The notes: generated by a model not told the origin, from the sequence alone. A DNA stretch of 61,932 nucleotides from an uncultured Bacilli bacterium (GCA_944358795.1 CALVRW010000015.1:1-61932); one strand, 5' to 3'; shown: positions 1,322 to 61,648, counted from the first letter of the stretch. Numbers and translations: made by a program.

Positions 1322-1419
1322 ATAGCAGTTTTGTTGTCAAGTACATAACTAATTCCAAATTATGATTGTCTTTTTTTAGAATTTATTTTATGCTATTATT
1401 ATAATGAAAGGATGATTTT

Positions 1420-1884
1420 ATGATTCGTATCTGTTTTGTCTGTCTTGGAAATATTTGTAGATCTCCAATGGCCGAATTTATTTTTAAAAATATGATTAAA
1501 ATGGAAAATTTAGAAAATAAGATTTCAGTTGAATCTAGAGGTACAAGTGATGAAGAATTAGGTAATCCTGTTCATCCAGGAACAATAAGAGAATTAAAAC
1601 TACATCATATTCCATATCAAAATAGAACTGCAATTAACCTAAAGAAAGATGACTATCAGAAGTTTGATTATTTTATCGGTATGGAATCTTACAATTGTCA
1701 AATAATGCGGCAATTATTTTTAGGTAATTCTGAATTAAAAATTCACCGACTACTTGATTTTTCACCACTAAAAAAAGATATTGCTGATCCATGGTATACG
1801 AGCAACTTTTCTTTGACCTATCAAGAAATTGAAATGGGTTGTAAATATTTCCTTGAATATTTAATCAAAAAAGAGAATTTATGA
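1420..1884 (+). CDS. low-molecular-weight protein-tyrosine phosphatase
   Basis: N-terminal CLGNICRSP (C-X5-R-S P-loop) and a DPWY Asp loop. RBS aaaggatg lies upstream. Confidence 0.85.
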   Translation: MIRICFVCLGNICRSPMAEFIFKNMIKMENLENKISVESRGTSDEELGNPVHPGTIRELKLHHIPYQNRTAINLKKDDYQKFDYFIGMESYNCQIMRQLFLGNSELKIHRLLDFSPLKKDIADPWYTSNFSLTYQEIEMGCKYFLEYLIKKENL

Positions 1885-2111
1885 ACTGATTCTCTTTTTA
1901 TGTTTTTCAAGTTTCTATTACGATTTTACTTCATTCTTTTTTTCTTATTAAAATAATGAATTGCTACCATCATTTGTATATCATTGCTTTATTTCTTTTC
2001 TGTTTTCATTTTTAAAGCTATATCAGAATACATATCCTGTTTGTTTATTGTATCTATACCAACTAATTTAGAATGATTTGTGATTGTTTTTCTATATTAT
2101 CACTTCGTTAA

Positions 2112-3164
2112 TTATTTTACTCTTTTTAATTGATATTCTTTTATTTTCTCTATAATAACTGGGTAAAATTCATCAATCGTTTGATAATCATTTCTTTGAT
2201 TCTCATATTCACATAAACTATCGATAATTGGTTCCATATAAATAAAACCATTTTCTTTTTCTTGCTCTACAATTTGTTGTCCCCATTTTTCATTACCATA
2301 CATATTTATAACATAACGCACTTCTAAAGCTCTAATGATATGTTCATTCAAAATATGAGTATCATATGGATATGCCTGTTTTTTCATATTTTCTCTAATA
2401 TCATCAAATAAATTAGTTTTTTCTGTAACAATTCCTAATCGACTAGTGATAGGATCAATATATGCATGACTAAACTCATGAAAAGGATTATAAAGCGTTA
2501 ATTCTTCTTTTCCACTATTATTAAATAAATCATTGGATTTCATCTCACGAAATATTGGAAAACAATCATAAACTTCATTATTATTATCACAACAAAATCC
2601 CCCATTCGTAATACAAGGTGTTAAGTTCACAATTAGTTTTTTACTCAATCGATAACCGTAATACTTTTCAAAGTAACTAAATAAATTATATTTTTGAAAA
2701 GCAGATGATGCTGCAACAACCCATTTTTTATATAAATCTCTATGTTCATTATAAAATTCGTCAAACCTAATTTCTAATCTAAATTTATTTAATTCATTAA
2801 TAAAATCATAAATAGATTCATCACTTTGTAATCTTTCTTTGTAACAATAATCTGTTAATTTATCTACTTTTAAATTTTCATCCAATTGTAAAAACAAATC
2901 CAATGGTGCGTCATAATTAAACCCATGAGTATCTACGATTCTCTCAAAATCTTTTATCACTTTATGATTGCTAAATTTTTGAAATCGTTTGATAATTTCA
3001 TCCACATAAAATTGATTTCCATACTTCTGAAATAAAATATCATATTTTTGATGATAATTACTAATCCACATAATAATCCCTAATAATTCTGTTCTATAAT
3101 CTACTTCAATATTAATATCATTTACTTGTATATTGACACTCTCCATATTATTTTTTCCTTTCAT
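2112..3164 (-). CDS. hypothetical protein with HExxH-like motif (HEFSH), possible metallopeptidase
   Basis: 350-aa ORF with HEFSHAY. The family assignment (DUF4932-like) is from memory only. Confidence 0.55.
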   Translation of the reverse strand: MKGKNNMESVNIQVNDINIEVDYRTELLGIIMWISNYHQKYDILFQKYGNQFYVDEIIKRFQKFSNHKVIKDFERIVDTHGFNYDAPLDLFLQLDENLKVDKLTDYCYKERLQSDESIYDFINELNKFRLEIRFDEFYNEHRDLYKKWVVAASSAFQKYNLFSYFEKYYGYRLSKKLIVNLTPCITNGGFCCDNNNEVYDCFPIFREMKSNDLFNNSGKEELTLYNPFHEFSHAYIDPITSRLGIVTEKTNLFDDIRENMKKQAYPYDTHILNEHIIRALEVRYVINMYGNEKWGQQIVEQEKENGFIYMEPIIDSLCEYENQRNDYQTIDEFYPVIIEKIKEYQLKRVK

Positions 3165-3214
3165 TCAACTACAAAACACTTCATTCATAATAACATGAGT
3201 GACTGCTTCTTTGT

Positions 3215-3748
3215 TTATAAAGTAGTCTCTTTTTTTGGTATCGTAAACTTTGTCATATCGTTTTTTTCTAGTTCTAGTAGTTTTATTTTATTTTGAATAC
3301 CACCACCATAACCTGTTAAGCTTCCATTTATTCCAACAACCCTATGACATGGAATAATGATACAAATAGGATTCCAGCCAACTGCTCCACCTACTGCTTG
3401 AGCAGACATTTTACGAATTCCTTTTCTTTTTGCTATTTCTTTGGCAATATCGTTATAAGTAATTACTTTTCCGTATGGAATTTGATTCATAATATCGATT
3501 ACCATACTTCTAAATGGAGTTAAATTTTCTATTTTATAATTTGGTGTAAAGTTAGGTTTTTCCCCACAAAAATAGATATCTAACCATTTACTAGTCTCAT
3601 CAAAAATAGGTAATTCTTGAATGGTATATTCACCAGTATGTTTAGAAGAATCTCTTGAACCTTCAAACCATAATCCTGTTAAATATTCTCCATCACTACT
3701 CATATAGATTACACCAAGTGGGGAATGATATGCTTTTCTATACATCAT
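3215..3748 (-). CDS. ogt: methylated-DNA--protein-cysteine methyltransferase
   Basis: Active-site IPCHRVV motif and a C-terminal DNA-binding domain pattern. Confidence 0.85.
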   Translation of the reverse strand: MMYRKAYHSPLGVIYMSSDGEYLTGLWFEGSRDSSKHTGEYTIQELPIFDETSKWLDIYFCGEKPNFTPNYKIENLTPFRSMVIDIMNQIPYGKVITYNDIAKEIAKRKGIRKMSAQAVGGAVGWNPICIIIPCHRVVGINGSLTGYGGGIQNKIKLLELEKNDMTKFTIPKKETTL

Positions 3749-3850
3749 TTTATTTTCTCCTTCTTTAATAGCAACTCTAGTTCCAACAAAACATCTTGGT
3801 ATGCTAGACGCGAATCATGTTCAATTTCAGCATAAGTGTTAAAAATACAT

Positions 3851-4290
3851 TTACACCAAACTTTTCATATAATATCTTGTTTCTGTTTCATCTATAATCG
3901 AAAAGCCTAATTTTTTATAAAGAGAAATTGCTCGTTTATTTAACTTATACACCCATAAATAGACAATATCATGTTCCATTAATACTTGTTTTAAATTCTT
4001 GTTCCAATTCCATTATTTCTATTATTTTCTTCTAAATATAGTTCATTTATTAATAAGCCATCATCTTTATTTTCAATGCATAAACACCCTACTTTATGGT
4101 GATTTACCTCTATCATTTTATAATGTTCTAAATGTTCATAAACTTGATTTTTAACGTACTGATTGATTTGTTCTTTTTCCTCTTTTGTTAGTTTACCAGC
4201 ATATTCAAAAATGTTACTTAACTCATAGTCAATTAATTTTGACATATCCTGTTTTGTTGCTTTTTTTAATTCATAATTCATTATTATCAC
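3851..4290 (-). pseudogene. GNAT N-acetyltransferase split by a frameshift
   Basis: ORF 3991-4290 ends at ...NNGIGTRI*. Another frame immediately continues LKQVLMEHDIVYLWVYKLNKRAISLYKKLGFSIIDETETRYYMKSLV*, the typical GNAT C-terminus. Confidence 0.6.
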
Positions 4291-4297
4291 TCTTTTT

Positions 4298-4699
4298 TTA
4301 TTTATTTCTTTGTTTTATATATTGTTTTACGAGTGGGATTCTTATTGTATCTTTTTCTCTTGTACTCATTTCTAAGTATTCTAAATATTCTTCTATATTT
4401 TGTAAATAATAATTTCCTACTTTTTCAGGCTGATAGTTCAGATTCTCTTTCTTTCCATCACATACACACTCTATTTTATCTGTTACTTCATACCAATCAT
4501 TTCCCTTTGGTTTTAACTGATAGTTCTTTTTTAATTCTTCCAATCCTAAATCTGTCACTGCAATATCTAAATCTCCAGCATCAGGATAAATATCTCTTAA
4601 TACTAAAGCACTAGAAGATAGAATCCAATATTCCTCTACATCTAGTTTTAAAGAAGATAGTAATTCTAATAGTTCTGTTTTATTCATTCTTTTTTCCAT
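4298..4699 (-). CDS. hypothetical protein, possible nucleotidyltransferase fold
   Basis: 133-aa ORF with a GDLDIAV-type motif. The functional call is weak. Confidence 0.45.
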   Translation of the reverse strand: MEKRMNKTELLELLSSLKLDVEEYWILSSSALVLRDIYPDAGDLDIAVTDLGLEELKKNYQLKPKGNDWYEVTDKIECVCDGKKENLNYQPEKVGNYYLQNIEEYLEYLEMSTREKDTIRIPLVKQYIKQRNK

Positions 4700-4736
4700 A
4701 CTAAATATTCCTTTCTCACATATTCTTTTTCTAGTT

Positions 4737-6188
4737 CTAAACTTCCAATTTTTTTACTTTTTCTTTTCCTTGTTCCATCACACGATTCATTGATTCTTGT
4801 CTTTGATATAACAGATTTAATTTCTTTTTCAAATCTGTTTCTAAGGTTTCAAATTGTTCCTGTATCTTTCTTACTTCAGGAAAATCATATGATCCATATT
4901 CTAATAAAAATTCATTTTTTAAGGATTGTAGTTGTTCTATCGAATCTTCATAAACATTTGAAGATACTTCTAATGCTTTTTGTTCACTAGATAATTGCTC
5001 TACAATCTTTTCTGCATTAAAATATGCGACTTGGTTTTCTTTATCCTTTCCTAAATTTCTCATTCCTCGTATTCCATAGTTTGTAAATACTGCTCCTAAG
5101 AAAATATCAAACATCGATACTTTCTTCTTAAAAAAGCGAGAGATTCCAAATCCAGTTATCAAAGTACTCGTAATGATTTTTCCGAATGTTTTAAAGATTC
5201 CTCTTTTTTTCTTTTTAGATAGTACTTGTTCATTCATTTTTTCCATTAACTGTTGTTGCTTTCTAATTTTAAGAACTAGTTCTTGTTTTAATAACTCATT
5301 TTTTGTAAGAATCGCTTCTTTTTTATGATGAATAGTTTCTTTTGTTTGATTTTGTTTCGTATAACATTCATTTTTTAACATTACACACGCATCAAATGTT
5401 TTTCTAATTTTTTCGTTCTTTTGGTAGGGAGTCATTTTTGATTGAAGTTGTTCTAATTTTTCAATTGTTTGATCAAAGTTAGTGGAAGTCATCGATTGTT
5501 TAATATGATTTAGTTCTTGTTCAAAAGAATGATTTAACATTCGTATTTTTTCTTCTTCTAAATCTATTCCACCTTTTTTCTTTTGTTCTAAAATCGGTTC
5601 TTGTATTTTTTGATTCACGATTTGTTCTTGTTGTTCTAATCTTTTTTTTGTTTGTTTTTGTGTTGTTTCAATTGCGGTAATTTTTTCCTTACTTTCTGTA
5701 ATTTTTTTCTGGTTATCAGTCTTTTCTTTTTTCTTATTTTTCTTTTCTATCTCATTTAACTCTTTTTTTACCTCTTCTAATGTTTTTTGTTGTTGATTTT
5801 GTTTCTCTTGTATTTTTACCAAGGTTTCTTTTTGAGCAATTGCTTGTTTTTTTGTTTCTATCTTTTTTGTGTTTTCTTTTTTGACTTCTATTTTTAAAAA
5901 GTTCGTTTCTTCCTGTAAAGCTTGTAACTTCTTATCAATTTGGAGTAATTGTTTTTCTTCTTTTTTCTTTGGTAACAAAATTGTTTCTACTACTCCTAAA
6001 AATAATCCAATTACTGTCAAACAAATTACTTTTGGTTTAGAATATGTTTTAATCTGTTGTTCTTTTTTTCTCGCTTCTTCTGTTCTTTTTTTACATATTT
6101 TTTCTTCTTCTTGTTTTTTCTTTTTTTGCTGTTTTAAATTTCTAAGCCAGAGAAAAAAGCGATTTTTTCTACTTCCTCGTTCCCCCAT
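4737..6188 (-). CDS. K/E/Q-rich coiled-coil membrane protein
   Basis: 483 aa with a basic N-terminus and a hydrophobic segment (VICLTVIGLFLGVV). Long charged heptad-like stretches follow, then a second hydrophobic patch (FKTFGKIITSTLITGFGI). Confidence 0.6.
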   Translation of the reverse strand: MGERGSRKNRFFLWLRNLKQQKKKKQEEEKICKKRTEEARKKEQQIKTYSKPKVICLTVIGLFLGVVETILLPKKKEEKQLLQIDKKLQALQEETNFLKIEVKKENTKKIETKKQAIAQKETLVKIQEKQNQQQKTLEEVKKELNEIEKKNKKKEKTDNQKKITESKEKITAIETTQKQTKKRLEQQEQIVNQKIQEPILEQKKKGGIDLEEEKIRMLNHSFEQELNHIKQSMTSTNFDQTIEKLEQLQSKMTPYQKNEKIRKTFDACVMLKNECYTKQNQTKETIHHKKEAILTKNELLKQELVLKIRKQQQLMEKMNEQVLSKKKKRGIFKTFGKIITSTLITGFGISRFFKKKVSMFDIFLGAVFTNYGIRGMRNLGKDKENQVAYFNAEKIVEQLSSEQKALEVSSNVYEDSIEQLQSLKNEFLLEYGSYDFPEVRKIQEQFETLETDLKKKLNLLYQRQESMNRVMEQGKEKVKKLEV

Positions 6189-6274: not shown

Positions 6275-7939
6275 TTAACTAATAATACTTACTAATGTAA
6301 TTTTTGCGTATCCATTTCCAGTATTACCTGTAATGTTTCCACTACCTCTTGGGTTTGGCATTGAAGCATTACCTGCAATCATAGAAGTGCTTGTAAACTT
6401 TTTACCAGAATAATGGACTGGTGAAGCGGTATGTTTTCCAGTACTATCAATTGCGTTACATCCATTATGACCAGAGATGAATGACGATCCTCCAGCTCCA
6501 GAACTAACACCACTATTGATGTAACCGCCTCCTCCGCCACCGTAGTAGCCTCCTCCGCCACCACTTCCGTGTCCGGCTTCAGAGTTTCCACCGATTCCAA
6601 ATATACCAGCACCACCATTATTAGTAGCACCTTTTCCTCCTGCTGTTTGAGTTCCACCAGTTGCTAAAGTATGAGATGCACTTCCAGAATTTAATATTCC
6701 AGCTCCTCCTGTAAGTGCTCCTCCATATCCTCCAACTGCAGCATTGGTATAATTTGATGCTCCAGCTCCACCAGCAGCTACCATGATTCGACTACGAAGT
6801 CCCATTGTATCATTCCAATAACCATTTACTAATCGAATATCAGTGGCTCCTCCTCCAGAACCTCCACCTTGGTAGGCATTTCCTCCAGAACCACCACCAT
6901 TAAAGGTATCCGTAGCTGGATTAGAAGCTGATCCATTGTATCCTTTTTCTCCTACATAAATATATACTTTTTCATTGGCATCCAAAGTCATAATTCCTGA
7001 AGTATAAGCACCTTTTCCTCCTGCTACTAATGTACCAGTTCCATTGGTATTTGGATAACTTGATCCACCTTGTGCTCCCCATAATTCAAATTTATATGAA
7101 CCTTTTACAGGCGTTGTAAATTCTTGTTCTGATGACTTATAATCAAAATTATTATTGGTATTGATTTTAATAACCGTACGCGTTCTTTGAGAAATTGTTT
7201 TTCCATCCTCTACTAAATTATAAATTAACTGATAGGTTCCTGATGCCGTTCCCACACTACCTATTATTTTTACACGAGAATCATTTTCAACTGTACTACC
7301 ATCTTTTTTTCTAACATAATAACCTGGTTCTGTATAGGTTTTATCTTGTAATACAATTTGACTATTTCCCTTTAAGAATAATTGTTCTGTTGTTTCTATA
7401 TCACTAATATTAAGATCCCCGACTGATGATTCTAAACTATTATATAAATAAACAACACGAACACCATAATCACCTTTTACTAAAGGGTGTGTCACAGGAA
7501 TATCAATGGTAATCATGGAATCTTTTTTTCCATGTTCCACATTTAAAAAGGTTTCATTTGTAATTTTTACTTTTCCATAACTACTTCCACTTACTAATTT
7601 GGTTGTATAATCTCCATAGTGAAAGGTATTACTTACTTTATCAAAGCTAAGTGTCTTAACAGAATCATCTTCAAAGGTAAAACTAAGACAGTTATCTCCT
7701 GTTTGACATTTTGCCGCAATTTTTATCTTTTGTTCTTCAAAGCTCTCTGCTACTTTTTTTGTCATCAAACCTTGTTTAATTAACAATTCCGTTTTTAATC
7801 CATCTTTTACATATAATTCTTTTAAATTTAATACAATTTGAAATAAAATTAAAACAATTACGAGTGTCAAACTAAATGACACTGTAAGTTCCACAATTGT
7901 AAATCCTCTTCTATTTTTTATAATCCCATTTTTATTCAT
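6275..7939 (-). CDS. type IV pilin-like protein with C-terminal glycine-rich domain
   Basis: N-terminus is KNRRG|FTIVELTVSFSLTLVIVLILF (prepilin cleavage/methylation motif). The C-terminal ~270 aa carry repeated GGxGG blocks (ELWGAQGGSS...GGKGAY...GGGSGGGATD...GGGGGYYGGGGGGY). Confidence 0.75.
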   Translation of the reverse strand: MNKNGIIKNRRGFTIVELTVSFSLTLVIVLILFQIVLNLKELYVKDGLKTELLIKQGLMTKKVAESFEEQKIKIAAKCQTGDNCLSFTFEDDSVKTLSFDKVSNTFHYGDYTTKLVSGSSYGKVKITNETFLNVEHGKKDSMITIDIPVTHPLVKGDYGVRVVYLYNSLESSVGDLNISDIETTEQLFLKGNSQIVLQDKTYTEPGYYVRKKDGSTVENDSRVKIIGSVGTASGTYQLIYNLVEDGKTISQRTRTVIKINTNNNFDYKSSEQEFTTPVKGSYKFELWGAQGGSSYPNTNGTGTLVAGGKGAYTSGIMTLDANEKVYIYVGEKGYNGSASNPATDTFNGGGSGGNAYQGGGSGGGATDIRLVNGYWNDTMGLRSRIMVAAGGAGASNYTNAAVGGYGGALTGGAGILNSGSASHTLATGGTQTAGGKGATNNGGAGIFGIGGNSEAGHGSGGGGGYYGGGGGGYINSGVSSGAGGSSFISGHNGCNAIDSTGKHTASPVHYSGKKFTSTSMIAGNASMPNPRGSGNITGNTGNGYAKITLVSIIS

Positions 7940-8023
7940 ACAGAATCCTCGCTATTCTTTAATCATTATATACTATTTTAGTATTCTTTTTCAAGTAGCG
8001 AAACAAGAAAAAAAGAATAGTAA

Positions 8024-8233
8024 TTATTCTTTTGGTGGTTTATATTCTAATACATCATCGATGTTACAACCCATAACATAACAAAGTTTAGCTAAAACAT
8101 CCATATCTACCTTTGTTAATGGTGCATTATTATAATAAGATTTTACTGTTTGATGTTTGAGTCCTGTTTCTTTACTAAGTTCATAAACACTAACTTCTCT
8201 AGCATCCATAATTTCTTTAATTTTAATATTCAT
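8024..8233 (-). CDS. XRE-family helix-turn-helix regulator
   Basis: MNIKIKEIMDAREVSVYELSKETGLKHQTVKSYYNN has the HTH_3 pattern. I prefer the internal Met over the track start at 8302. Confidence 0.65.
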   Translation of the reverse strand: MNIKIKEIMDAREVSVYELSKETGLKHQTVKSYYNNAPLTKVDMDVLAKLCYVMGCNIDDVLEYKPPKE

Positions 8234-8350
8234 TTTACCATAATCTTTATATTCAGCTATTTTTCTTTTTACACCTACTGTTTTCCTACTCAAACATATC
8301 ACCTCAAATTCACTTTTATTTTAACATGTTTCCACTTTCAAAAATATTCC

Positions 8351-8379
8351 TTGCGATGGTGCCATTATGATGGTATAAT
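8351..8379 (+). promoter_or_regulatory. sigma-70-type promoter for 8399-8653
   Basis: TTGCGA (8351-8356), a 17-nt spacer, then extended -10 TGgTATAAT (8372-8379). Confidence 0.5.
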
Positions 8380-8398
8380 TATCACAGGAGGTGAACAC

Positions 8399-8653
8399 AT
8401 GCCTGTAAAACACCATTATACTACACTTGAAAAAGAGGCAGATAGAATTACATTGTTGTTAATTAAAAACCGCCGTACTGATAAAGATATGTTTACTCTA
8501 ATTGAAGAATTTATGGATCCTAAATTTAAAGAGGATGCCGTTACGATAAAAAGCCTAATTCCAACTTTTCTAGCAAGACATTTTTATTATGAAATTCAAT
8601 CGATTGACCCTTTTCGTATTCGTTCGTTCAAAATAAAAACTTCACGTTATTAA
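8399..8653 (+). CDS. hypothetical small protein (84 aa)
   Basis: Strong RBS caGGAGGTgaacac before ATG at 8399. The upstream part of the track ORF (8150-) lies antisense to the XRE gene. Confidence 0.55.
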   Translation: MPVKHHYTTLEKEADRITLLLIKNRRTDKDMFTLIEEFMDPKFKEDAVTIKSLIPTFLARHFYYEIQSIDPFRIRSFKIKTSRY

Positions 8654-8664
8654 TTCGTGAAGTT

Positions 8665-9159
8665 TTATTTAATTGTTCCAAATCGATTAAATGGAAATAA
8701 AGAGAAATTCGTTGTTCCTAAAATATCTTCTTTCTTTACCAAACCAATGGTTCTACTATCAGTAGAATTCATTCGATTATCCCCCATAACAAAATAATAA
8801 TCATCCGGTATTTTATCATATCCTAATTCTTCTAATTTAAAATTTCCTGTTTTTCCATGTTGAAATGTTTCTTTTACTTCTTTTTTATTAATATAAAGTT
8901 TTCCATTTTGATAAGAGACATAATCTCCAGGTAAACCCACAATCCGTTTTACTAATTTAGTACCATGATAATCTAATACCACAATTTGAAATCGTTTATA
9001 ACTATGATCCCATTTGTTTAACAGTAATATTTGTTTATCTTCTAACGTTGGTACCATCGAAGTTCCTTGTACTCGTACTGGTGTAATTAGAAAAATACGA
9101 ATGAGTACTACTACAGCTATGATAATGATATAAGGAATACATTCTTTTAATAATTTCAC
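8665..9159 (-). CDS. lepB: signal peptidase I
   Basis: GTSMVPTL (Ser box), KRIVGLPGD (Lys box) and GDNRMNSTDSR. Confidence 0.85.
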   Translation of the reverse strand: MKLLKECIPYIIIIAVVVLIRIFLITPVRVQGTSMVPTLEDKQILLLNKWDHSYKRFQIVVLDYHGTKLVKRIVGLPGDYVSYQNGKLYINKKEVKETFQHGKTGNFKLEELGYDKIPDDYYFVMGDNRMNSTDSRTIGLVKKEDILGTTNFSLFPFNRFGTIK

Positions 9160-21584: not shown

Positions 21585-21690
21585 TAACCTCCTTCATTTT
21601 TCTAAGACTCGCCGTAAAGGTACGAATATTCGTTTTATAAACCTTTAACCCGTGCGGTTGTAGTAACAGAGGTACTACACAATTAAAGAT
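21585..21690 (-). promoter_or_regulatory. structured 5' leader of rplU-prp-rpmA (possible L21-type leader)
   Basis: ~105-nt untranslated gap containing hairpin GTAGTAcctctgtTACTAC and a CCGCACGGG segment. Assigned by position only. Confidence 0.3.
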
Positions 21691-21694
21691 TTTA

Positions 21695-22456
21695 TCATAG
21701 TTTCCTTTTAAAGTCAAACATTCTATGAAGAAATTCTCGCTCGGAATAACATTTTTTTCCTTGGTAAAAAACATGACGATAATCGCGTTGCATCTTTTTT
21801 GTATTTTCTCCAAAAATCGTTTTATATTTTTTAAAAGGATAATAAGTTTGATAGCGTTCTAACAAGAATTTAGAAAAGACAAATTTTCTTCGTTGATACT
21901 CTCTTTTCCACTCTAAAAAAAGAAAGAAAAATGTTAAACATAAGATAAAATTAAAAGGATATGTAAGACAGTAAAAAATGAGACAAAATAAAGTTAACAT
22001 TGAAATAAACAGTGTTAGAATTTGACTTTCATAAAAAGATAAAACATAATTTCCAATTACTTGGAATAGTTTTGATCCATCTAACGGAACAATTGGTAGT
22101 AAATTAAATCCGAGTATCAAGTAATGATAATAAGAAAACATTGAGTCCTTAATCCAACACTTTAATAGCAAGTACCCAATCATCTGCATCATCGGTCCAG
22201 CTAACACAATTAAAAGTTCTTCTTTTAGGGGACGATTTAAACTTTCATGAAATAAAGTCAGTCCTCCAAACGGAAGAATGATAATTTTTTCGATGTTCCA
22301 ATGAAAAAAAGAAGACATCAAAATATGTCCACATTCATGAATGAAAATCAAAATCATAATCATAGAGAAATCTTTAAAATAACCGGTCATGATAGACACA
22401 ATCATGAAAACATAAAATAATAGATGAATCTGAGTTTTCCCATGCTTTTCTTTCAT
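21695..22456 (-). CDS. M50 site-2 metalloprotease, SpoIVFB-like
   Basis: HECGH (HExxH) in a TM helix plus FNLLPIVPLDGSK (NxxPxxxLDG). Located directly upstream of rplU, as in Bacillus. Confidence 0.75.
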   Translation of the reverse strand: MKEKHGKTQIHLLFYVFMIVSIMTGYFKDFSMIMILIFIHECGHILMSSFFHWNIEKIIILPFGGLTLFHESLNRPLKEELLIVLAGPMMQMIGYLLLKCWIKDSMFSYYHYLILGFNLLPIVPLDGSKLFQVIGNYVLSFYESQILTLFISMLTLFCLIFYCLTYPFNFILCLTFFFLFLEWKREYQRRKFVFSKFLLERYQTYYPFKKYKTIFGENTKKMQRDYRHVFYQGKKCYSEREFLHRMFDFKRKL

Positions 22457-22459
22457 TCC

Positions 22460-23062
22460 CTACTCCTTTATATAATCTTTATAATCTAAATTTTTTCCTT
22501 CCTTTTGAAATACAAGATACAAACTACGATCTTTCACTTGACCAATTAAATCCCCTTTTTCAACATAATCATATAATTTTACGTTCACTTCTGCTAAATT
22601 CCCATACCAAGTATCGACACCACTCATTCCTTGAATAATAACGGTTTGTCCATATCCTTCTTTTTTACCAATAAATACAACCATCCCACTTTCCATATTA
22701 GGAACCAAGTAATTTTTATCAACAGTTAGTTTTACCCCATCACGGTAAAGACTTTGATCTTGATAAGCTAATGATTCTTGAAATACCGTTGTTACTGGTT
22801 GTTTAATAAATTCTTGAAAAGGAATGGGACTACCAAAATAAGTTTGATAAAGTTGATTTACTTTGGCAAAAGAAAAGTTCTTTATAAAAACTTCTTTATA
22901 AAATTTCGTTTTTAAACTGGTATTACTTTTCAAAGTAATTAGCGTAAGAAGGGTTAGTACCGTTACAATTAATAATTTGGTTATATACTTCGTAATGAAT
23001 AAACTTCCTTTATTTTCTTTCTGTATTTTTTTCACTCGTTTCTTTTTTTTCCGTTTGTCCAT
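22460..23062 (-). CDS. degenerate M23/LytM-domain membrane protein, SpoIVFA-like position
   Basis: One TM segment. The C-terminal LytM barrel pattern GMVVFIGKKEGYGQTVIIQG...WYGNL...GDLIGQV has its metal-ligand His positions replaced (Q, G). Confidence 0.6.
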   Translation of the reverse strand: MDKRKKKKRVKKIQKENKGSLFITKYITKLLIVTVLTLLTLITLKSNTSLKTKFYKEVFIKNFSFAKVNQLYQTYFGSPIPFQEFIKQPVTTVFQESLAYQDQSLYRDGVKLTVDKNYLVPNMESGMVVFIGKKEGYGQTVIIQGMSGVDTWYGNLAEVNVKLYDYVEKGDLIGQVKDRSLYLVFQKEGKNLDYKDYIKE

Positions 23063-32240: not shown

Positions 32241-32303
32241 ACAACCGACTCCAATACTACTACAAACTATTTCAAATAAATTATATCATAATTTTTCTCC
32301 ATT

Positions 32304-32330
32304 TAAAAAATACCATATCATTATGGTATT
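32304..32330 (-). terminator. terminator of the split LysM gene
   Basis: Minus strand reads AAUACCAUA-augA-UAUGGUAUU (9-bp stem) followed by UUUUU. The stop codon lies inside the hairpin. Confidence 0.6.
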
Positions 32331-32437
32331 CTCAATACTTGACCGATTCTTAAATTATCACTTGTTAATTGATTCAACCGTTTTATTTCATCTACTGTTG
32401 TACCAAATTTTCTTGCAATATTCCATAACGTATCACC
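32321..32437 (-). pseudogene. detached 3' segment of the PG-binding/LysM gene (last LysM repeat)
   Basis: Translates to (G)[37 protein letters not shown]. It is near-identical to LysM repeats 1-2 at 37030-37330 and in frame with 37007-37867 once 32438-37006 is removed. Confidence 0.8.
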
Positions 32438-32570
32438 TGATACATTTTTTATGTAGCATTTTGAATTTTCAGTTTCTTAATCGAATGCCTGATTGTTAAC
32501 ATATAAAAATAATTATTCTCTAAAAAAATATCCTATTAATTTTTACTAAAATTAATAGGATGAGAAATTT

Positions 32571-33119
32571 TTAATGATTTTTTTGTAATTTTAAAACTTT
32601 TACTAACCTATTTATGATTACAGGTCTTGCAAATTGTTCTTCTAGTGTTAATACACCATTTTTATATCTACTATATGCTGCATCGTAATTACCTTGTTCG
32701 ATTTGTTCAACACAATATTTTACAATGTTATTATAAATATAATGATAAATAATATCTGATTTTTCTTCTTTATTAATTATTTCAACAATTGTAGGTGCAA
32801 TTTCATAATAATGCGCTATATCTTCTTTTGAAACAAATGCATCTCTAAACCATCTTAATAACGTTAACTCATAACAATTATCATCGAAGTTTTCTTGAAA
32901 ATGACTCATACAAGCAGATGTTAAATAACATTTAATATCTGTGTGTTCTGTACTTCCATTTGTTGTATCAATAATATGAGCTGTTTTTGTATCACTATCA
33001 ACAGCTATATGAATTGATTTATGTTCTTCTTGTGGATTATTTGTATAAACATCAACTTTTGTATCATATCTTTTGCTATTAGGTGTTGTTGTTTTAATAA
33101 TTGGTTTATTATCTGACAT
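32571..33119 (-). CDS. hypothetical protein with conserved Cys-motif C-terminal domain
   Basis: I prefer the start MSDNKP (RBS AAAGGAG). It contains CYLTSACMSHFQENFDDNCYELTLLRWFRDAFV...YYEIAPTIVEIIN, a motif I recognise as widespread but cannot name. Confidence 0.55.
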   Translation of the reverse strand: MSDNKPIIKTTTPNSKRYDTKVDVYTNNPQEEHKSIHIAVDSDTKTAHIIDTTNGSTEHTDIKCYLTSACMSHFQENFDDNCYELTLLRWFRDAFVSKEDIAHYYEIAPTIVEIINKEEKSDIIYHYIYNNIVKYCVEQIEQGNYDAAYSRYKNGVLTLEEQFARPVIINRLVKVLKLQKNH

Positions 33120-33516
33120 CTTGATCATTCTCCTTTTCATTTTTATCATTTAATATTTCAATTAATATTTTTCCTATTTCGTATAATGCATATGATATAC
33201 CTTCACAATGAAATATTCCATCATAATCAGCTAGGCATAATTCTAATTCTGAAACATTACTTTCTAATTGTTTATATTCTTTTTGAATCTTATAAATGTT
33301 ATGATTATTAAAATAAGCTTGCCAATTTTTTGTTGTGGATAATAATTCTTTGAAATAACAAATGATTTGATTTCTTGACACTTCAAAATAAATTTCGTTT
33401 TTTAAAGTATTAATATTATTTAAATTTTTTTCAGTTTGTTCTATTATATATTTTATATTTTCATTGAAACAATTTATTTGTTCTTCACTAATATTATAAC
33501 TAATGATATACAACAC
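33109..33516 (-). CDS. hypothetical protein (135 aa)
   Basis: ORF translationally overlapping the next gene, with no motif. Confidence 0.45.
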   Translation of the reverse strand: MLYIISYNISEEQINCFNENIKYIIEQTEKNLNNINTLKNEIYFEVSRNQIICYFKELLSTTKNWQAYFNNHNIYKIQKEYKQLESNVSELELCLADYDGIFHCEGISYALYEIGKILIEILNDKNEKENDQDVR

Positions 33517-33667
33517 CTCCCATTTTTATTTCAAATACTCTTAAAGAAATCTTTACATTTAATTAATTTCAACTTGGACATATTCAAATTTTTCTTTCTT
33601 ATATACTATTATAAACTTTTATATAAACAAATCAATATTTAACATAAAAAATAGTTTCTAATATCTT

Positions 33668-35215
33668 TTATATCGTATTTTTAAATGTTAATATAATATC
33701 TATTTGTTTATTTTGATAAATATAAATTTTTTCAACTAGATGAATGATTAACTCTCTAGTTGGATCATTCATTGATAAAAATTCATTCATATAGTTTTCT
33801 ATTCCATTTTTATCTATTTTATTAGGTTCAATTAATTCAGTTTTTAATTCTTCAATCGTTAATTTGTTATTTTTGATTTCTTTTTTTATAATTTCACTTA
33901 TTCTTACATATTGCTCTTCATCAATCACACTATTTAACATATCCATATAAATTTTATCTAAATTTGTAATCAATTGATTATTTTTATGTTCTAAACATTC
34001 AATTTGATGCTTCAATTTTAACATATTATCTTCAAACTCTGTATTATGAATTTTATTTTTTACTATATTTATATCTAAATTTTTTTTACAAACATCTCTA
34101 ATATTATCTAGAATTACTTTTTCTAATCGTTCATAATTATTGATATGTGCTGTACAAACTTGATATTTTGAATAGGTCCTATAATAATTACAAGTCGTAT
34201 AACTTCTACCAGTTTTATTTTGATATCGAATCGAAATACGATGTTTACAATCACCGCAATATAAAAGTCCATCTAATAAATAAAATCTTTTTTTCTCTGG
34301 CCTTTTTACATTTTTTGGTAATAATGTTTGTACAAGCTCAAATGTATCTTTATCAATAATTGCTTCATGAGTATTTTCTACAATCATATAATCATTAGGA
34401 TTATTCTTAACAAACTTTTTCAGTTTATAATTAATCTTTTTCGTCTTCCCTTGTACAACATCTCCAGTGTATATTCGATTTGTAAGAATCGCTTTCACTG
34501 TTGTATCAACCCATACACCATGTTCTTGTGATAAACATTTTTTATTCCAAACATAATGATAATAGGATGCTGGTGTTTTTATTTTTTTTTCAGTAAGGTA
34601 TTGAGCAATATAATGATAGGTATTCCCTTTAAGTGCTAAATCAAAAATTAATTTAACTACTACTGCTTGTTCTTCATTTATTACTAAATGATTTTTATTA
34701 ATTGGATTCTTCCTATATCCAAATGGACATCTTCCCGATACATATAACCCATCTTTCATTCTTGAGTGAAGGCTGCTTTTGATTTTTTTCGAAATATCTT
34801 TAGCATACATATCATTCATGATGGCTTTAAAAGGAGCAATATCATTACTTGCATTATCGATAAAAGTATCGATTCCATCGTCAATCGCAATATATCTAAT
34901 CTGATTCTTTGGAAAATATTTTTCGATTAACTCTCCTGTACCAATATAATCTCTTCCAAGTCTAGACATATCTTTGGTAATCACCATATTAATTTTCCCT
35001 AATTCAATATCTTTCATCATTCTTTTGAATGATGGTCTATCAAAATTCGTTCCAGAAAATCCATCATCAACATATTCATCTACTACTATATAATTATTTT
35101 CTTTCACATACTGTTTTAGTAAACTTCTTTGACTAACAATACTATCAGACTCTATATTCCCATCATCTCTTGATAATCTTATATAAAGTCCTACTTTATA
35201 ATTACTATTTTCCAC
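33668..35215 (-). CDS. large serine recombinase
   Basis: Resolvase catalytic domain VGLYIRLSRDDG...SIVSQR, a recombinase domain, a zinc ribbon (CGDCKHRISIR...C..YRTY...C) and a long C-terminal coiled coil. 515 aa. Confidence 0.9.
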   Translation of the reverse strand: MENSNYKVGLYIRLSRDDGNIESDSIVSQRSLLKQYVKENNYIVVDEYVDDGFSGTNFDRPSFKRMMKDIELGKINMVITKDMSRLGRDYIGTGELIEKYFPKNQIRYIAIDDGIDTFIDNASNDIAPFKAIMNDMYAKDISKKIKSSLHSRMKDGLYVSGRCPFGYRKNPINKNHLVINEEQAVVVKLIFDLALKGNTYHYIAQYLTEKKIKTPASYYHYVWNKKCLSQEHGVWVDTTVKAILTNRIYTGDVVQGKTKKINYKLKKFVKNNPNDYMIVENTHEAIIDKDTFELVQTLLPKNVKRPEKKRFYLLDGLLYCGDCKHRISIRYQNKTGRSYTTCNYYRTYSKYQVCTAHINNYERLEKVILDNIRDVCKKNLDINIVKNKIHNTEFEDNMLKLKHQIECLEHKNNQLITNLDKIYMDMLNSVIDEEQYVRISEIIKKEIKNNKLTIEELKTELIEPNKIDKNGIENYMNEFLSMNDPTRELIIHLVEKIYIYQNKQIDIILTFKNTI

Positions 35216-35384
35216 TATCTTTACTCATTTCTTTGACATGGAAATCATGATGATGGTTAGATTTACGATTTTGATAAATCGTATGAAACTTTTTTTGAAG
35301 TTCACTTTTTAAAACATTGGCTATTATTTCGTTGATAGATTTTTCATTTTCATTAAATTGTAAATTCACTTTATATTGAACCAT
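35205..35384 (-). CDS. small protein upstream of, and overlapping, the recombinase gene
   Basis: MVQYKVNLQF... with GGAGG 11 nt upstream. Function unknown; a directionality-factor role is speculation. Confidence 0.35.
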   Translation of the reverse strand: MVQYKVNLQFNENEKSINEIIANVLKSELQKKFHTIYQNRKSNHHHDFHVKEMSKDSGK

Positions 35385-35567
35385 AGAATTTAATACCTCC
35401 ATTAAACTCTATGGCTTTAATTGTTGTTTTAGTAATACTCAAAAACTGAATCAAGTCTTAAACTATAGAAAATTCTGTCTGTCATCCTAAAAATATTCAT
35501 AATTTATAGCATAAAAAAATCATCCTATTTTCTAGTTTTCTCTAAATTTTATAGGATGACTAATTTT

Positions 35568-36845
35568 CTAATTTATTTTTTCATATAATTTTGAATATAA
35601 AACAAACGGTTCATGCCAATCTTTATAATATCTCATAATAGCATCTCTAGATGGTAGACCTAATTTAACTAAATCTTTAGCAGCTTTTGGTATAGAATTA
35701 CCATCTTTTATGTAAGCAAGAATAATATTATCAATTTCTTGTTTTGTAAATTTTGCTTTTTTCTTTTTCTTGATTACTATATTATATTTTTCACAAAATA
35801 AATCAAAAGTACCAAAATTTTTATAAATCGTACTTTCAGATATTGGAAAGATATCTAAAAAATCTTTTCTTGTATTAAATACCCTATCTCTCGTTTGAAA
35901 TAATTCTTCAATATATTTGTCAATATCAGAAGTAGTTATTAGTTCATTTTTTTTAGAAATTTGAGAACCAACAAGTTTTTGAAAATTCCCCATAGTTCCA
36001 AAATACTTATATATTACTCCTGCTGTTGGCAAGTTGTTTTCTAAACACAAATTTTTCTGTGTTATTTTTCCATGCTTTTCAACAAATTTCTTTCCAGCTT
36101 CCAATACTTTATCCTTTGTCCAATTATTTCTAATTTTCAAATTAAACATATCTTTCTTCATCTCATTTAATCCTGTATATTCTGGATAATGTCTAATAAT
36201 ACAAGGATATGAAGGCAATCCATTATATGATTTCAAATCTTTTTCTAAAATATCACCATTGATTTTGATATAATCTTCCAAAGCTTCTTTTATTGTTTCT
36301 CTGTTCCATGCAATTGGTTCTTTTAAATTAAATGATTGTTTTAAAGTTTGAAAATCTCCATAGTATTTATATACATATTTTATCGATGGAAGATTATTAT
36401 ACACTCTATTAAAATCAACTTTATTTATGGTTCCCTTTTTATTAATAAAGTTTGAAATAATTAAATCAAATTTATCTTTAGTCATTTCTTCAGATTCTAT
36501 TTTTGTGTTTTCAAAAGTATCAATTTCGTTCGGTTCATTAGAATCATCTTCATCTATGCTTCTACCTTCAAGAAATTTTTTTGCTTTCTCATCTAAAAGG
36601 AAATCAGTAAGTTCTTTATCATTTTTCTTTAAATTACATTCAGAACACAAAATTTGACAGTTAGATTTAATCGACTTGCCACCTTTAACATATGCCTCAA
36701 TATGATCAAAATGTCCTTCATTTATAGACTTCAATTCTTTTCCGCAAGCTTCACAACATATTCTGCCATTATTTTTTTCTAAATTTTCTCTAACTATTGA
36801 AAATTTTATAGAATCAGTAAAATCTCTCATAATTATACCTCGCAC
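35568..36845 (-). CDS. HNH endonuclease-domain protein with five ~55-aa helical repeats
   Basis: N-terminal CCEACGKEL...GHFDHIEAYVKGG...CQILCSECNLKKNDK. Repeated modules follow, each ending in a ...LPS/T..x.I.k.YG.F... pattern (homing-endonuclease-associated repeat type). Confidence 0.8.
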   Translation of the reverse strand: MRGIIMRDFTDSIKFSIVRENLEKNNGRICCEACGKELKSINEGHFDHIEAYVKGGKSIKSNCQILCSECNLKKNDKELTDFLLDEKAKKFLEGRSIDEDDSNEPNEIDTFENTKIESEEMTKDKFDLIISNFINKKGTINKVDFNRVYNNLPSIKYVYKYYGDFQTLKQSFNLKEPIAWNRETIKEALEDYIKINGDILEKDLKSYNGLPSYPCIIRHYPEYTGLNEMKKDMFNLKIRNNWTKDKVLEAGKKFVEKHGKITQKNLCLENNLPTAGVIYKYFGTMGNFQKLVGSQISKKNELITTSDIDKYIEELFQTRDRVFNTRKDFLDIFPISESTIYKNFGTFDLFCEKYNIVIKKKKKAKFTKQEIDNIILAYIKDGNSIPKAAKDLVKLGLPSRDAIMRYYKDWHEPFVLYSKLYEKIN

Positions 36846-36967
36846 ATCTTAAATATTAAATATATTATACATTATTTTAGGTATGTTTTCAATCATAGTA
36901 TTAATTACTATATTAAATTTAATGAAAGAGTTGATTACATATAAAAAAGTATACAATTGTTTATACT

Positions 36968-37867
36968 TTAATATAACTCATTATTCCCCATAAAAATTGT
37001 ATCACCTGCCACGACAGTATAAGTTTTCACACTTGGTACTTTTAGTATTTGACCAATTCTTAAGTTATCACTTGTTAGTTGATTCAATCGTTTTATTTCA
37101 TCTACCGTTGTACCAAATCTTTTTGCGATGTTCCATAACGTATCTCCTGCCACAACAGTATAAGTGGATACATCTTGTGGTGGTATTACCTCTCCTGTTG
37201 TTGGTATTTTTAATACTTGACCTACTAAAATCGTATCATTTGTTAAATTATTCAATCGTTTTATTTCATCTACTGTAGTACCGAATTTTTTCGCAATACT
37301 CCACAAACTATCACCTGGAACAACCGTATAAGAAATCGTATTTCCCTCTTCTGTTTCTCCATCACAAATTGCAAGTGGTGCATAAAGGGTATCAAGGGCA
37401 CTCCATGTATCTCTTCCAACAATACCATCGGCTGTTAGATGGTTAATTGTTTGAAATGATTTCACTGCTGTTTGGACACTGGTATCAAAATTTCCATTGA
37501 TTGGTCCATTATAATAAAGTAAATTCGTTAAAATTCGTTGTAACTCCATTACATATGGTCCACTGCTCCCAAGACGAAGTGTTGGTTTTGTTTGTATCTT
37601 ACTAGCTGGCAACATATTATTTGTAAGACGAAATAAAGCATCCCAAGTATCTCTTCCAACAACTCCGGTTGGATTTAATCCTTGATCTTGTTGAAACCTT
37701 TTTACTGAGTCAGTAGTACGATTCCCAAAACTCCCCGTGATACTAGCATCATAATAACCTAATAATTTCAATTTTTCTTGTAATATCATCACTTCATTTC
37801 CCGTACTTCCTTCTTCTAATGGTGGATAACGAAATGTTGATTGTTTTTCTTCTAAATCATTATTCAT
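36968..37867 (-). CDS. 5' portion of a PG-binding (x2) + LysM (x2, third truncated) protein; reading frame runs into the element
   Basis: Two PG_binding_1-like repeats (GSTGNEVMILQEKLKLLGYY..., GSSGPYVMELQRILTNLLYY...) and two LysM repeats ([27 protein letters not shown]...). The ORF ends AGDT-IFMGNNELY*, with the last 9 codons read from element DNA. Confidence 0.8.
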   Translation of the reverse strand: MNNDLEEKQSTFRYPPLEEGSTGNEVMILQEKLKLLGYYDASITGSFGNRTTDSVKRFQQDQGLNPTGVVGRDTWDALFRLTNNMLPASKIQTKPTLRLGSSGPYVMELQRILTNLLYYNGPINGNFDTSVQTAVKSFQTINHLTADGIVGRDTWSALDTLYAPLAICDGETEEGNTISYTVVPGDSLWSIAKKFGTTVDEIKRLNNLTNDTILVGQVLKIPTTGEVIPPQDVSTYTVVAGDTLWNIAKRFGTTVDEIKRLNQLTSDNLRIGQILKVPSVKTYTVVAGDTIFMGNNELY

Positions 37868-41634: not shown

Positions 41635-41982
41635 CTATCTCCTACTTTCTTTTTTTTGTAAATATTTTCCTAACACATGATAACTAAGTAAAATACTTGG
41701 AAATAAGATTACAAATCCTAATAGTAACATCCAAATAATATTTGATACTAAACTTGCAAGTGTTACCGTAATACTAATGATAAAACTATTTACCATAATG
41801 ACTTTTTTTACTAACCATTTTAAATCAAATTGATTTAGTTTTAAATGATATACTTTTTTTAAATAATTGATTTCTGTACTTTTCTTCATCTTTTGTAATT
41901 TATCTTCTTTTCTCACTACAAACATCGTATAAATGAAATACACAATGATGTAAGAAAAAATCCATAAAATCAGTTGTTTCAT
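41635..41982 (-). CDS. small membrane protein co-transcribed with leuS
   Basis: I prefer the start MKQLILWIF (RBS GGAGGGaat). The track's GTG extension lies inside the T-box. Three hydrophobic spans. Confidence 0.55.
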
Positions 41983-41997
41983 ATTCCCTCCAACATA

Positions 41998-42215
41998 TAA
42001 AAAAAGTACTATGGATTTAAGGACGTGTGAACGTGGTACCACCTTAATTCATAATACTTTGATTATCTTTCTTGTGTTAACGCTACTATCCATGCGGCGA
42101 AGATTCGCAACTAGAAAAGCAAGTTCATGATATCAATGACAAAAGTTTTCACCAACCACTTTTTCTCTAAGCTCAGGTATATCATTACTACTCTTTTCCT
42201 TCGTCTTTCATTTAC
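41998..42215 (-). promoter_or_regulatory. T-box leader (Leu specifier CUU)
   Basis: Minus strand carries AGUA box, AGAGA...GUGGUUGGUGAAA, GAA-CUU-G (aag at 42121-42123), the T-box sequence AAGGUGGUACCACG (about 42030-42046) and a U7 run (41998-42005). Confidence 0.65.
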
Positions 42216-60445: not shown

Positions 60446-61648
60446 ATGAAGTATGTTTTAGTACTAGACATTGCTAAAGGTAAAAGTATGTTTATGTTAT
60501 CTAGTGATGATGGTGAAATTTTATTAGAACCTACAGAATACGCACATAATAAATCTAATTTTGAATTTATTAATTCTTGTATTCATAAACTAAATATCAA
60601 AGATAATTTAACTGTTGTTATGGAAGCAACTAGTATCTATCACAAAGCACCAGAAAGATTTTTTAAAGAAAATAATTATCATGTTATTGTCTTTAATCCT
60701 CTTATTGGTAAAGAAATTACGAACACTATCAGAAAAACAAAAACTGATAAACAAGACTGCATTAAATTAACTAATTTATTTTGGAAAGGTAGTATTCCAA
60801 ATAGAATTTATAAAGAAGATGAGATTTATACCAATCTTAATGAATTATCTAGACATTATTATCATTTAGACGAAGGTTTAACTAGACATAAGAATCGTTA
60901 TAAAGAATTATTACATCTTTGTTTTCCAGAATTCGAATTGTGTTTTAAAGATGGAAAAATATATGATTTAACTGCTTTAAACTTTATCAAAGAGTTTCCA
61001 CACGCTTATATTATTAAAGAAAAAAGAGTTGATGCTCTTGCTTACAATATGGCTAATACAAATGGTAGACATATCAACTATTATAAGAGAAAAGCTAATA
61101 CGATTAAGGAATATGCCCAAAATTCTTATCCAGGAGTAAGTAAGAATTCTAAAGATGTTGATAATCTTAAACAATTAACCGATATCATTATTGATATTTC
61201 TAAACAAAAAGATAATGTCAAAAACCAAATGATTGAACTTGCCAAACAAACTAAACATTTCGAATGCATTGTTTCGATATTTGGTATTGGAGAATTATCC
61301 ACCTCTTTAATTATCGCTGAATTAAAAGATATTACTAGATTCAATAATGTTAAACAAATTAATGCTAGTTGTGGATTAGATCCTACTATAATTCAATCAG
61401 GTAAAAGTATAAATTATCATGGTCCAATTTCCAAAAGAGGAAATAGATACGCTAGAAAAATATTATTTAATTGTAGTCGAAATATTGTAACTATATCAGC
61501 TAAATGTGATAAAGAAAATCCAATTTATGTTTATTATCAAAAGAAAAAACAGGAAGGTAAACATTACTATGCTTGTTTAACTGCCTGTTCCACTAAATTA
61601 ATTAGAATTATTTATGCGTTGTGCATAAATAACTCAACCCAAAATTAG
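60446..61648 (+). CDS. IS110-family transposase/recombinase
   Basis: LDIAKGKS...MEATSIYH...NP...KTDKQD (DEDD RuvC-like domain). The C-terminal Tnp domain reads IFGIGELSTSLIIAELKDITRF...GLDPTIIQSGKS...ISKRGNRYARK. Confidence 0.9.
   Translation: MKYVLVLDIAKGKSMFMLSSDDGEILLEPTEYAHNKSNFEFINSCIHKLNIKDNLTVVMEATSIYHKAPERFFKENNYHVIVFNPLIGKEITNTIRKTKTDKQDCIKLTNLFWKGSIPNRIYKEDEIYTNLNELSRHYYHLDEGLTRHKNRYKELLHLCFPEFELCFKDGKIYDLTALNFIKEFPHAYIIKEKRVDALAYNMANTNGRHINYYKRKANTIKEYAQNSYPGVSKNSKDVDNLKQLTDIIIDISKQKDNVKNQMIELAKQTKHFECIVSIFGIGELSTSLIIAELKDITRFNNVKQINASCGLDPTIIQSGKSINYHGPISKRGNRYARKILFNCSRNIVTISAKCDKENPIYVYYQKKKQEGKHYYACLTACSTKLIRIIYALCINNSTQN

Follow-up and report, generated by a model that had tools for sequence, protein, structure and literature searches.

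The 61,932-nt stretch of DNA analysed here in full (the window; GCA_944358795.1 CALVRW010000015.1:1-61932) comes from an uncultured Bacilli bacterium, and within it a gene for a PG_binding_1/LysM protein is interrupted by an element of 4569 bp at 32438-37006. The 5′ part of this target gene (37007..37867, minus strand) encodes two PG_binding_1 domains, two full LysM repeats and the start of a third, up to ...YTVVAG; no signal peptide was found in the product. The reading frame continues into the element as a truncated open reading frame (ORF; 36968-37867, minus strand) of 299 aa, which ends in ...YTVVAGDT followed by IFMGNNELY, with the stop nine codons past ...YTVVAGDT. The missing 35 codons lie at 32321..32437, also on the minus strand, and consist of the remainder of LysM repeat 3 and two stop codons, with the intrinsic terminator-like hairpin and U-run of the target gene at 32300..32333 (minus strand; -11.2 kcal/mol, z = -4.4). 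Within the window, the 10-mer GTATCACCTG is confined to the two junctions, at 32430 and 36999. Removal of 32438-37006 in silico yields a 325-aa ORF in which Pfam recognises two PG_binding_1 domains (5e-40) and three LysM repeats (2e-61). The original prediction, made from the sequence of the window, had placed the cut in the third LysM repeat, assigned the fragment at 32321-32437 and its own terminator to the same gene, and proposed that excision would rebuild the repeat; each of these points is borne out.

GC content inside the element is 0.17-0.29, against about 0.30-0.37 in its flanks. The genes of the element all lie on the minus strand and encode an HNH endonuclease, a small ORF, a large serine recombinase (LSR), orf135 and orf192. 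The recombinase that had been read at 33668..35215 is indeed an LSR of 515 aa, with Resolvase (PF00239, 1e-21), Recombinase (PF07508, 6e-24) and Zn_ribbon_recom (PF13408, 7e-10) domains and a match to the phrog_95 integrase family (9e-105). Its ORF is intact, and the motif holding the catalytic serine, YIRLSRDD, is unchanged across 25 LSR homologues, so that the protein is predicted to be an active enzyme. In the PDB its best match is the catalytic domain of TnpX (9e-27), and SprA is matched over its full length (E = 9e-20, low-scoring); no LSR relative above 40% identity was found among reference phages and plasmids. Taken together, the locus is very probably a cell-wall-binding (LysM) gene split by a 4.6-kb mobile cassette that the LSR drives. 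This bears on annotation, where short LysM gene fragments beside recombinases should be read as the halves of a single gene.

The attachment sites define the boundaries of the element to the base. Joining its ends gives ATAAAAATTGTATCA-CC-TGATACATTTTTTAT, with arms that agree at 14/15 positions, and the attP-like geometry around a non-palindromic CC that had been proposed is upheld by this match and by the conservation of the arms in 21 distinct elements. In gene orientation, attL (36978..37035, minus strand) reads host ...ACTGTCGTGGCA-GG-TGATACAATTTTTATGGGGAATAATGAG, the latter being the P′ arm, with the crossover at 37005-37006 (CC on the plus strand), and attR (32410..32465, minus strand) reads P arm AAAATGCTACATAAAAAATGTATCA-GG-TGATACGTTATGGAATATTGC, the host half of which encodes G-D-T-L-W-N-I-A, with the crossover at 32436-32437. 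The reconstituted attP is CATAAAAAATGTATCA-GG-TGATACAATTTTTATGGGG, and the restored attB is ACTGTCGTGGCA-GG-TGATACGTTATGGAAT. The tail IFMGNNELY and the stop codon of the truncated protein are encoded by the P′ arm. Across the family, attL takes the form host ...TAT-ACn-GTn-nnn-nnn-GG + nGATACnnTTTTTATGGGGAATAATGAG(TAA) and attR the form ATTTAAAAATGTTACATAAAAATTGTATCw-GG + host nGAY-wCn-YTn-...-ATH-GCn; both outer arms in the window fit this consensus. The attP is an imperfect inverted repeat of ~58 bp around GG, the core common to attL and attR, and in the 21 distinct elements its arms are conserved over about 28 + 28 bp, while attB conservation is that of LysM codons. The crossover was placed at GG because attL and attR no longer agree at the base that follows it in three relatives (L001, L006 and L009; L numbers designate loci).

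The same locus was then compared in sister species, by scanning species-representative genomes with the SleC-like neighbour of the target gene and running tblastn on the results. The PG_binding/LysM gene is a conserved divergent neighbour of sleC in 16 species of uncultured gut 'Bacilli' known from metagenome-assembled genomes (L001-L016), and it is intact in most of them. An intact 325-aa orthologue with 88% identity occurs in L021-L024 in the same synteny as in the window, leuS / sleC / LysM / TMEM164, and is the uninterrupted relative of about 325 aa that the original prediction had envisaged. Related elements occupy other repeats of the orthologous gene, namely repeat 1 in L006 (3.4 kb) and repeat 2 in L001 (6.0 kb), with repeat 3 used in the window and in L025. 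The occupied L001 and the empty L021 agree at 99.67% over 8.7 kb, as far as the crossover GG, so that empty and occupied alleles both occur within one species. The window and L025 hold an identical composite element in the same repeat, 98.3-99.9% identical between the two, while the flanking host genes are 87-94% identical. LSR divergence does not track host divergence, the corresponding host flanks being 88.6% and 72% identical; the history of the element is therefore uncoupled from that of its hosts. The discordance seen with L025, together with the coexistence of empty and occupied alleles, thus indicates that the element is mobile and was recently transferred. At L009 (locus 7500-9056, minus orientation), a 1.6-kb remnant retains both att arms, a 380-aa cargo ORF and the last ~90 LSR codons only, and the LysM gene there would be permanently split unless an LSR acts in trans.

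A chimeric metagenome contig, joined at a LysM repeat, could also produce an apparently split gene. LysM repeats do break assemblies often, and three contigs (L001, L031 and L057) stop precisely at att sites. The same junctions were nevertheless recovered from different samples and assemblers (L025-27 for the exact element, dozens for its relatives), the att arms are conserved, and excision rebuilds the ORFs without error. An assembly artefact is therefore vanishingly improbable.

The LSR of the window belongs to a widespread family. More than 120 clusters (90% identity) lie at 76-82% identity to it, some of them with 200-900 members, and at least 588 metagenome stretches, human-gut assemblies included, encode an LSR relative of any identity. 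More than 30 independent relatives with LSRs 75-89% identical have conserved ~58-bp attP arms around GG, and the same attL and attR arms were identified at about 45 loci whose LSR shows 75% identity or more. Wherever such loci have enough flank, the two host halves always encode Y-x-V-x-x-G and D-T/S-L-x-x-I-A, the two sides of one LysM repeat. Removal of the element from GG to GG gave uninterrupted LysM-repeat ORFs in 24/24 evaluable distinct cases, from 26 reconstructions, two of which (L001 and L031) run off the end of a contig. More distant LSRs, at 57% identity or less (L079-L127), do not border LysM motifs, and target specificity therefore belongs to the clade at 75% and above. This family is found so far only in uncultured gut Firmicutes.

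The targeted proteins differ widely in architecture and include PG_binding_1 x2 + LysM, Amidase_3 + LysM, Peptidase_M23 + LysM, GH25 muramidase + LysM, and LysM-only forms. The GH25-LysM target (L052-55) has a signal peptide and belongs to a host of 46% GC; element GC remains about 0.24 whatever the GC of the host, which ranges from 0.22 to 0.46. The M23-LysM target lies behind a holin-like gene (phrog_1863; weak holin and haemolysin matches) in L060/L056/L118/L119, at about 4155-5366 and 8560-8860, and also in L040, L043 and L100. Two contigs with this holin-adjacent target are in IMG/VR, and the gene may be a prophage lysin that serves as both landing pad and vehicle. Other, different LSR genes (505, 526-569 and 588 aa) were observed within a few kb of the cassettes at L028 (14454-16756) and L034-L037 (1-6277), regions that accumulate serine-recombinase elements; some of these genes are accompanied by an HTH gene and by a 61-aa ORF upstream of them.

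Intact elements measure 2.9-7.0 kb and have a right-end module in common, a small ORF followed by an LSR of ~520 aa. Between attL and this core, the cargo varies: DpnII restriction-modification, Pycsar (PycC + PycTM), an OLD-family nuclease, RhuM/PDC-S05 with SWIM and UPF0158 proteins, a kinase-phosphatase-RNA ligase, TyrRS, a class II tRNA synthetase, a short-chain dehydrogenase (SDR), an MMPL transporter, HNH-425, and a pair of 121 + 195 aa whose larger member corresponds to orf192 of the window. In two elements, synthetase genes stand beside defence genes, a class II synthetase next to Pycsar in L050 (element 718-4069) and TyrRS next to the OLD nuclease in L063 (element 2571-6148), and the genes are complete. 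Such synthetase cargo may confer resistance to synthetase inhibitors or counter tRNA-targeting defence. Target genes of at least five unrelated types, insertion in different repeats of one gene among sister species, defence cargo, the empty/occupied polymorphism, conservation far beyond that of the flanks, and the gene left split in L009 after loss of the recombinase all favour the fallback reading of the original prediction, in which a small integrative element has a LysM repeat for its attB. It is accordingly highly likely that 32438-37006 is an integrated mobile cassette moved by its LSR.

The other constant part of the core is a conserved 59-aa ORF (MVQYKVNL...; 35205..35384, minus strand), preceded by a GGAGG Shine-Dalgarno sequence and overlapping the LSR start by 11 nt. 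In the family, the true start of this small ORF is MVKYKVNL, giving 59 aa behind a GGAGG Shine-Dalgarno sequence, and it accompanies the LSR in 26/26 intact elements examined. A full HMMER scan of 1.84 billion representatives recovered 14 small clusters, all of 51-78 aa, and a word-indexed search gave a near-identical copy only. The profile of the ORF had no PDB match, no homology to known directionality factors and no known family. Its length falls within the 53-72 aa span of known directionality factors (PMC10747680). As the only conserved candidate, we infer that it could be a recombination directionality factor or a regulator. In typical members the stop codon of the small ORF overlaps the start of the LSR, whose own stop falls within the P arm, and about half of the relatives have a sigma-A-like promoter (TTGACT-18-TATCAT) ahead of the 59-aa ORF. 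A palindrome, GGTATG-N7-CATACC, is conserved ~60 nt upstream of the ORF in L001, L028, L040, L043, L048, L052, L056 and others; it is missing from the copy in the window. Just before this palindrome, several elements carry a 67-aa ORF that we read as ribbon-helix-helix-like, with no match in Pfam, and the two together look like a repressor/operator switch for the recombination module.

The element in the window departs from the typical arrangement in that it is a composite, made of HNH + core and then orf135/orf192. Its first cargo, an HNH endonuclease of 425 aa with C-terminal repeats (35568..36845, minus strand), is followed by a hairpin terminator at about 35515-35565, and the same HNH-425 gene, 83% identical in nucleotides, is found in L052 and L057. 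A sigma-70-like promoter match precedes it at 36892-36864, from a consensus scan at chance level in this AT-rich DNA (57 sites, with 49 +/- 8 expected by chance). The second cassette (32571..33516, minus strand) comprises orf135 (33109-33516) and orf192 (32571-33149), with a terminator hairpin at about 32504-32570. Homologues of orf192 take the normal cargo position, with a 121-aa partner ORF, in L006, L056, L060, L118 and L119, and stand with other partners in L074 and L095; orf135 has no detectable similarity to the 121-aa partner. PADLOC gave no assignment for orf135, orf192 or the HNH protein besides a weak REase HNH match. Between the two cassettes, directly after the LSR stop, lies a fossil attP-like junction (33629..33686, minus strand), in which a degenerate P arm adjoins a degenerate P′ arm that has lost GGGGAATAATGAG (13 nt). 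Here the alignment runs first along a degenerate P arm and then along the leader at the left end of the L056/L006 elements, with a score of 97.5 for the L056 left end; the shuffle control (39 +/- 4) applies only to a separate alignment to the attP consensus, which scored 48. The element therefore consists of two tandemly fused cassettes that move as one unit, the attP-like junction between them being dead.

Several observations weigh against a cassette that is simply mobile and active. In the window's copy, the conserved stretch preceding the 59-aa ORF is shortened by a ~100-bp deletion, and the ORF itself has diverged in its C-terminal half (..FHTIYQNRKSNHHHDFH..), which lacks the TCN..ELPCNHTHY Cys/His pattern of the family; this copy might therefore be less active, and its lineage of the core module has diverged. 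The exact attP pattern expected of a circular or excised form was not found in IMG/VR nor in the 135 loci fetched, and no transfer, replication or packaging genes are present in the cassette. Many targets also adjoin cortex-lytic enzyme genes, which could mean that the choice is not simply any LysM gene. Moreover, all data consist of metagenome assemblies and inference from sequence. Separately, we observed that the LSR of the window is 6 aa shorter than is usual in the family, with altered termini.

These features raise the question of whether the element is an immobilised relic, once mobile and now a fixed, decaying insertion, with the LysM gene a truncated allele. The dead internal att junction, the deletion upstream of the 59-aa ORF and its diverged C-terminus are what such a history would leave, L009 shows that decay of this kind occurs, and a search for empty alleles at 95% identity or more to the species of the window found none. 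Against this, both outer att arms fit the family consensus, the LSR ORF is intact with its catalytic serine motif, and the composite recurs at 98-99.9% identity in a host that is only 87-94% identical in its flanks, requiring recent transfer as a unit. A relic is thus very unlikely. Because of the intact LSR, the consensus outer att arms and the near-identity in a diverged host, the composite in the window is probably active as a mobile cassette.

The genomic neighbourhood gives reason to consider a developmental role. The divergent neighbour of the target gene is a SleC homologue (PDB 9h68, 'spore cortex-lytic enzyme pre-pro-form', E = 7e-99, residues 4-402). At 21595-23062 (minus strand), the window also encodes M23 (200 aa) and M50 (253 aa) peptidases in the order mreC, mreD, M23, M50, L21 leader/rplU, which is the spoIVFA-spoIVFB-rplU arrangement of B. 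subtilis, and the pair supports a sporulating host. NCBIfam left the SleC-like protein unnamed and had no match for the M50 protein; PDB and Pfam named both. The sporulation markers listed in the original prediction, a SleC-like neighbour and a SpoIVFA/FB-like pair, are thus confirmed by these matches and by synteny. On this basis the element could be skin-like, integrated during growth and excised in the mother cell by the LSR and the 59-aa factor, so as to rebuild a LysM gene of the spore envelope or of germination. The target gene stands beside sleC in the 16 sister species and lacks a signal peptide; targets in other relatives lie beside SleC-like genes (L034-37, L042, L048, L051, L069) or beside CwlJ/SleB-like Hydrolase_2 genes (L028-33, L041, L045, L047, L058, L066, L095). 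The 59-aa ORF next to the LSR resembles known directionality factors in size (53-72 aa; PMC10747680), and the orientation of the element relative to its target gene is as for spoIVCA/sigK.

The wider family argues against this developmental reading. Its targets are not tied to sporulation genes: the same LSR clade splits a secreted GH25 muramidase (L052-55) and a probable phage lysin, the holin-adjacent M23-LysM gene on IMG/VR contigs, and it carries defence cargo. The protein remains largely intact after insertion, so that reconstitution is not obviously needed, and L009 has lost the LSR and kept the split gene. Empty and occupied alleles coexist at 99.7% identity, horizontal transfer is recent, and sister species have insertions in different repeats of the same gene. 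No sigma-E or sigma-K promoter was recognisable upstream of the 59-aa ORF and LSR, where about half of the relatives have the sigma-A-like TTGACT-18-TATCAT and the palindromic operator, and neither motif could be made out convincingly between sleC and the LysM gene. A CATATA(A/T)T upstream of sleC was considered as a sporulation motif and set aside, as it can equally be read as TTGATA-18-TATAAT. The structural part of the original prediction holds, with its LSR element, CC/GG crossover, precise boundaries and restorable gene; for a skin-like role in the mother cell the evidence is circumstantial, coming from the sporulation markers and cortex-lytic neighbours, and we regard that role as unlikely. 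Skin-like excision could hold alongside mobility, as SPbeta shows, a combination that is likewise improbable here.

We propose a mechanism in which the mobile cassette integrates by LSR-mediated pairing of the ~58-bp attP of a circular element with an attB made of the DNA encoding Y-x-V-x-x-G-D-T/S-L-x-x-I-A, followed by a 2-bp staggered exchange at the GG of the Gly codon. As GG is non-palindromic, every element lies co-directional with its target gene. The P′ arm provides the truncated host protein with a stop codon and, before it, a conserved tail of a few residues (IFMGNNE..), and the host would therefore make a truncated LysM protein that keeps its N-terminal domains and upstream repeats. 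The fitness cost of insertion would be low because the truncated protein keeps its catalytic domain and other repeats. Excision would require the LSR and a directionality factor, for which the 59-aa ORF is the candidate, and passage from cell to cell may proceed via phage lysin genes with LysM repeats. In a further extension, which we regard as unlikely, the family would form a class of 'domain-homing' mini-elements whose integrase reads LysM-motif coding sequence rather than one given gene, with landing pads in many genes of distant hosts and in phage lysins that could act as vehicles for the shuttling of defence genes. In spore formers they would in addition be excised in the mother cell from LysM genes associated with cortex or germination, and would then be a counterpart of skin that is mobile and carries cargo.

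A landing pad in the form of a ubiquitous, internally repeated domain motif accounts for the presence of a 3-7 kb cassette without transfer genes across hosts of 22-46% GC. Such elements would provide a compact vehicle for anti-phage defence genes in gut Firmicutes. For recombinase engineering they offer a defined attP, an attB consensus, a set of integrases and a candidate 59-aa partner, and the targets beside SleC- or CwlJ/SleB-like genes form a system for asking whether mobile cassettes become developmental switches. The family is apparently undescribed so far; no account of LysM-targeting serine recombinases was found in the literature, the coverage of which was incomplete, so that this is an absence of evidence only.

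Elsewhere in the window, a T-box leader (97 bits) precedes leuS at 42016-42210 (minus strand). An ORF of 135 aa at 41635-42042 overlaps this leader by 27 nt and otherwise fills the gap to leuS, and may not be a real gene. An IS110-family transposase of 400 aa at 60446-61648 (plus strand) is 88% identical to one at 9985-11187 in L021, where it lies downstream of the TMEM164 gene; the IS110 element is common to the window and to the related species L021, at different places.

Among known LSR systems, the staphylococcal cassette chromosome (SCC; CcrAB/CcrC; discussed in PMC5595907) is an LSR-only cassette of 20-60 kb that targets the 3′ end of rlmH and has no separate small factor. The LysM cassettes share with it LSR-only mobility, the absence of own transfer genes, variable cargo, non-destructive insertion in a conserved coding sequence, and tandem or composite arrays, seen here as an LSR-only module, cargo that varies among 26 elements, no transfer genes and the fossil tandem junction of the window. 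They have neither ccrAB/ccrC nor an rlmH attB, using a single LSR and a LysM attB, and unlike SCC they take a repeated domain motif as target and measure 2.9-7 kb. Tn4451/Tn4453 are clostridial LSR transposons of about 6 kb, moved by TnpX, with cargo, a mobilisation gene and loosely defined, GA-centred targets. They resemble the window's element as small LSR-only elements with cargo, and the TnpX catalytic domain is the best PDB match of the LSR (9e-27); TnpX, however, is larger, and the window's element shows no mob gene and strict target specificity.

The nearest comparison in spore formers is with the intervening elements skin (SpoIVCA/Skr), SPbeta (SprA/SprB), skinCd (CD1231/CD1234) and yin, with sigK interrupted by skin, spsM by SPbeta, gerE by gin and yabG by yin (PMC5025042, PMC4191935, PMC5499854, PMC10747680). 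In skin, SPbeta, skinCd and yin, as proposed here, precise excision by an LSR restores an interrupted gene in a spore former, with directionality factors of 53-72 aa, and the LSR of the window matches SprA over its full length, though at a low score (E = 9e-20). These elements are (defective) prophages in specific sporulation genes, with the recombinase or directionality factor under sigma-E or sigma-K control, whereas the element described here has no phage structural, replication or lysis genes in its 4.6 kb, no recognisable sporulation promoter and a family that enters many target genes. The gin element in gerE of Bacillus cereus (GirC/GirX; PMC5595907) is closer in being non-phage, in pairing an LSR with a small accessory factor, in its attP-like inverted repeat around a central dinucleotide, and in splitting a coding sequence that can be exactly rebuilt. 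It differs in its length of 28.6 kb, its three recombinases, its restriction to gerE and its sporulation-timed excision, shown by experiment (PMC5595907), while the window's element spans 4.6 kb and belongs to a clade with defence cargo whose target, a domain motif, is hit in many unrelated genes. The LysM cassettes operate in the manner of other LSR elements; what sets them apart is a domain-coding motif as target, found in many genes and repeated inside them, a compact fixed core and defence-type cargo.

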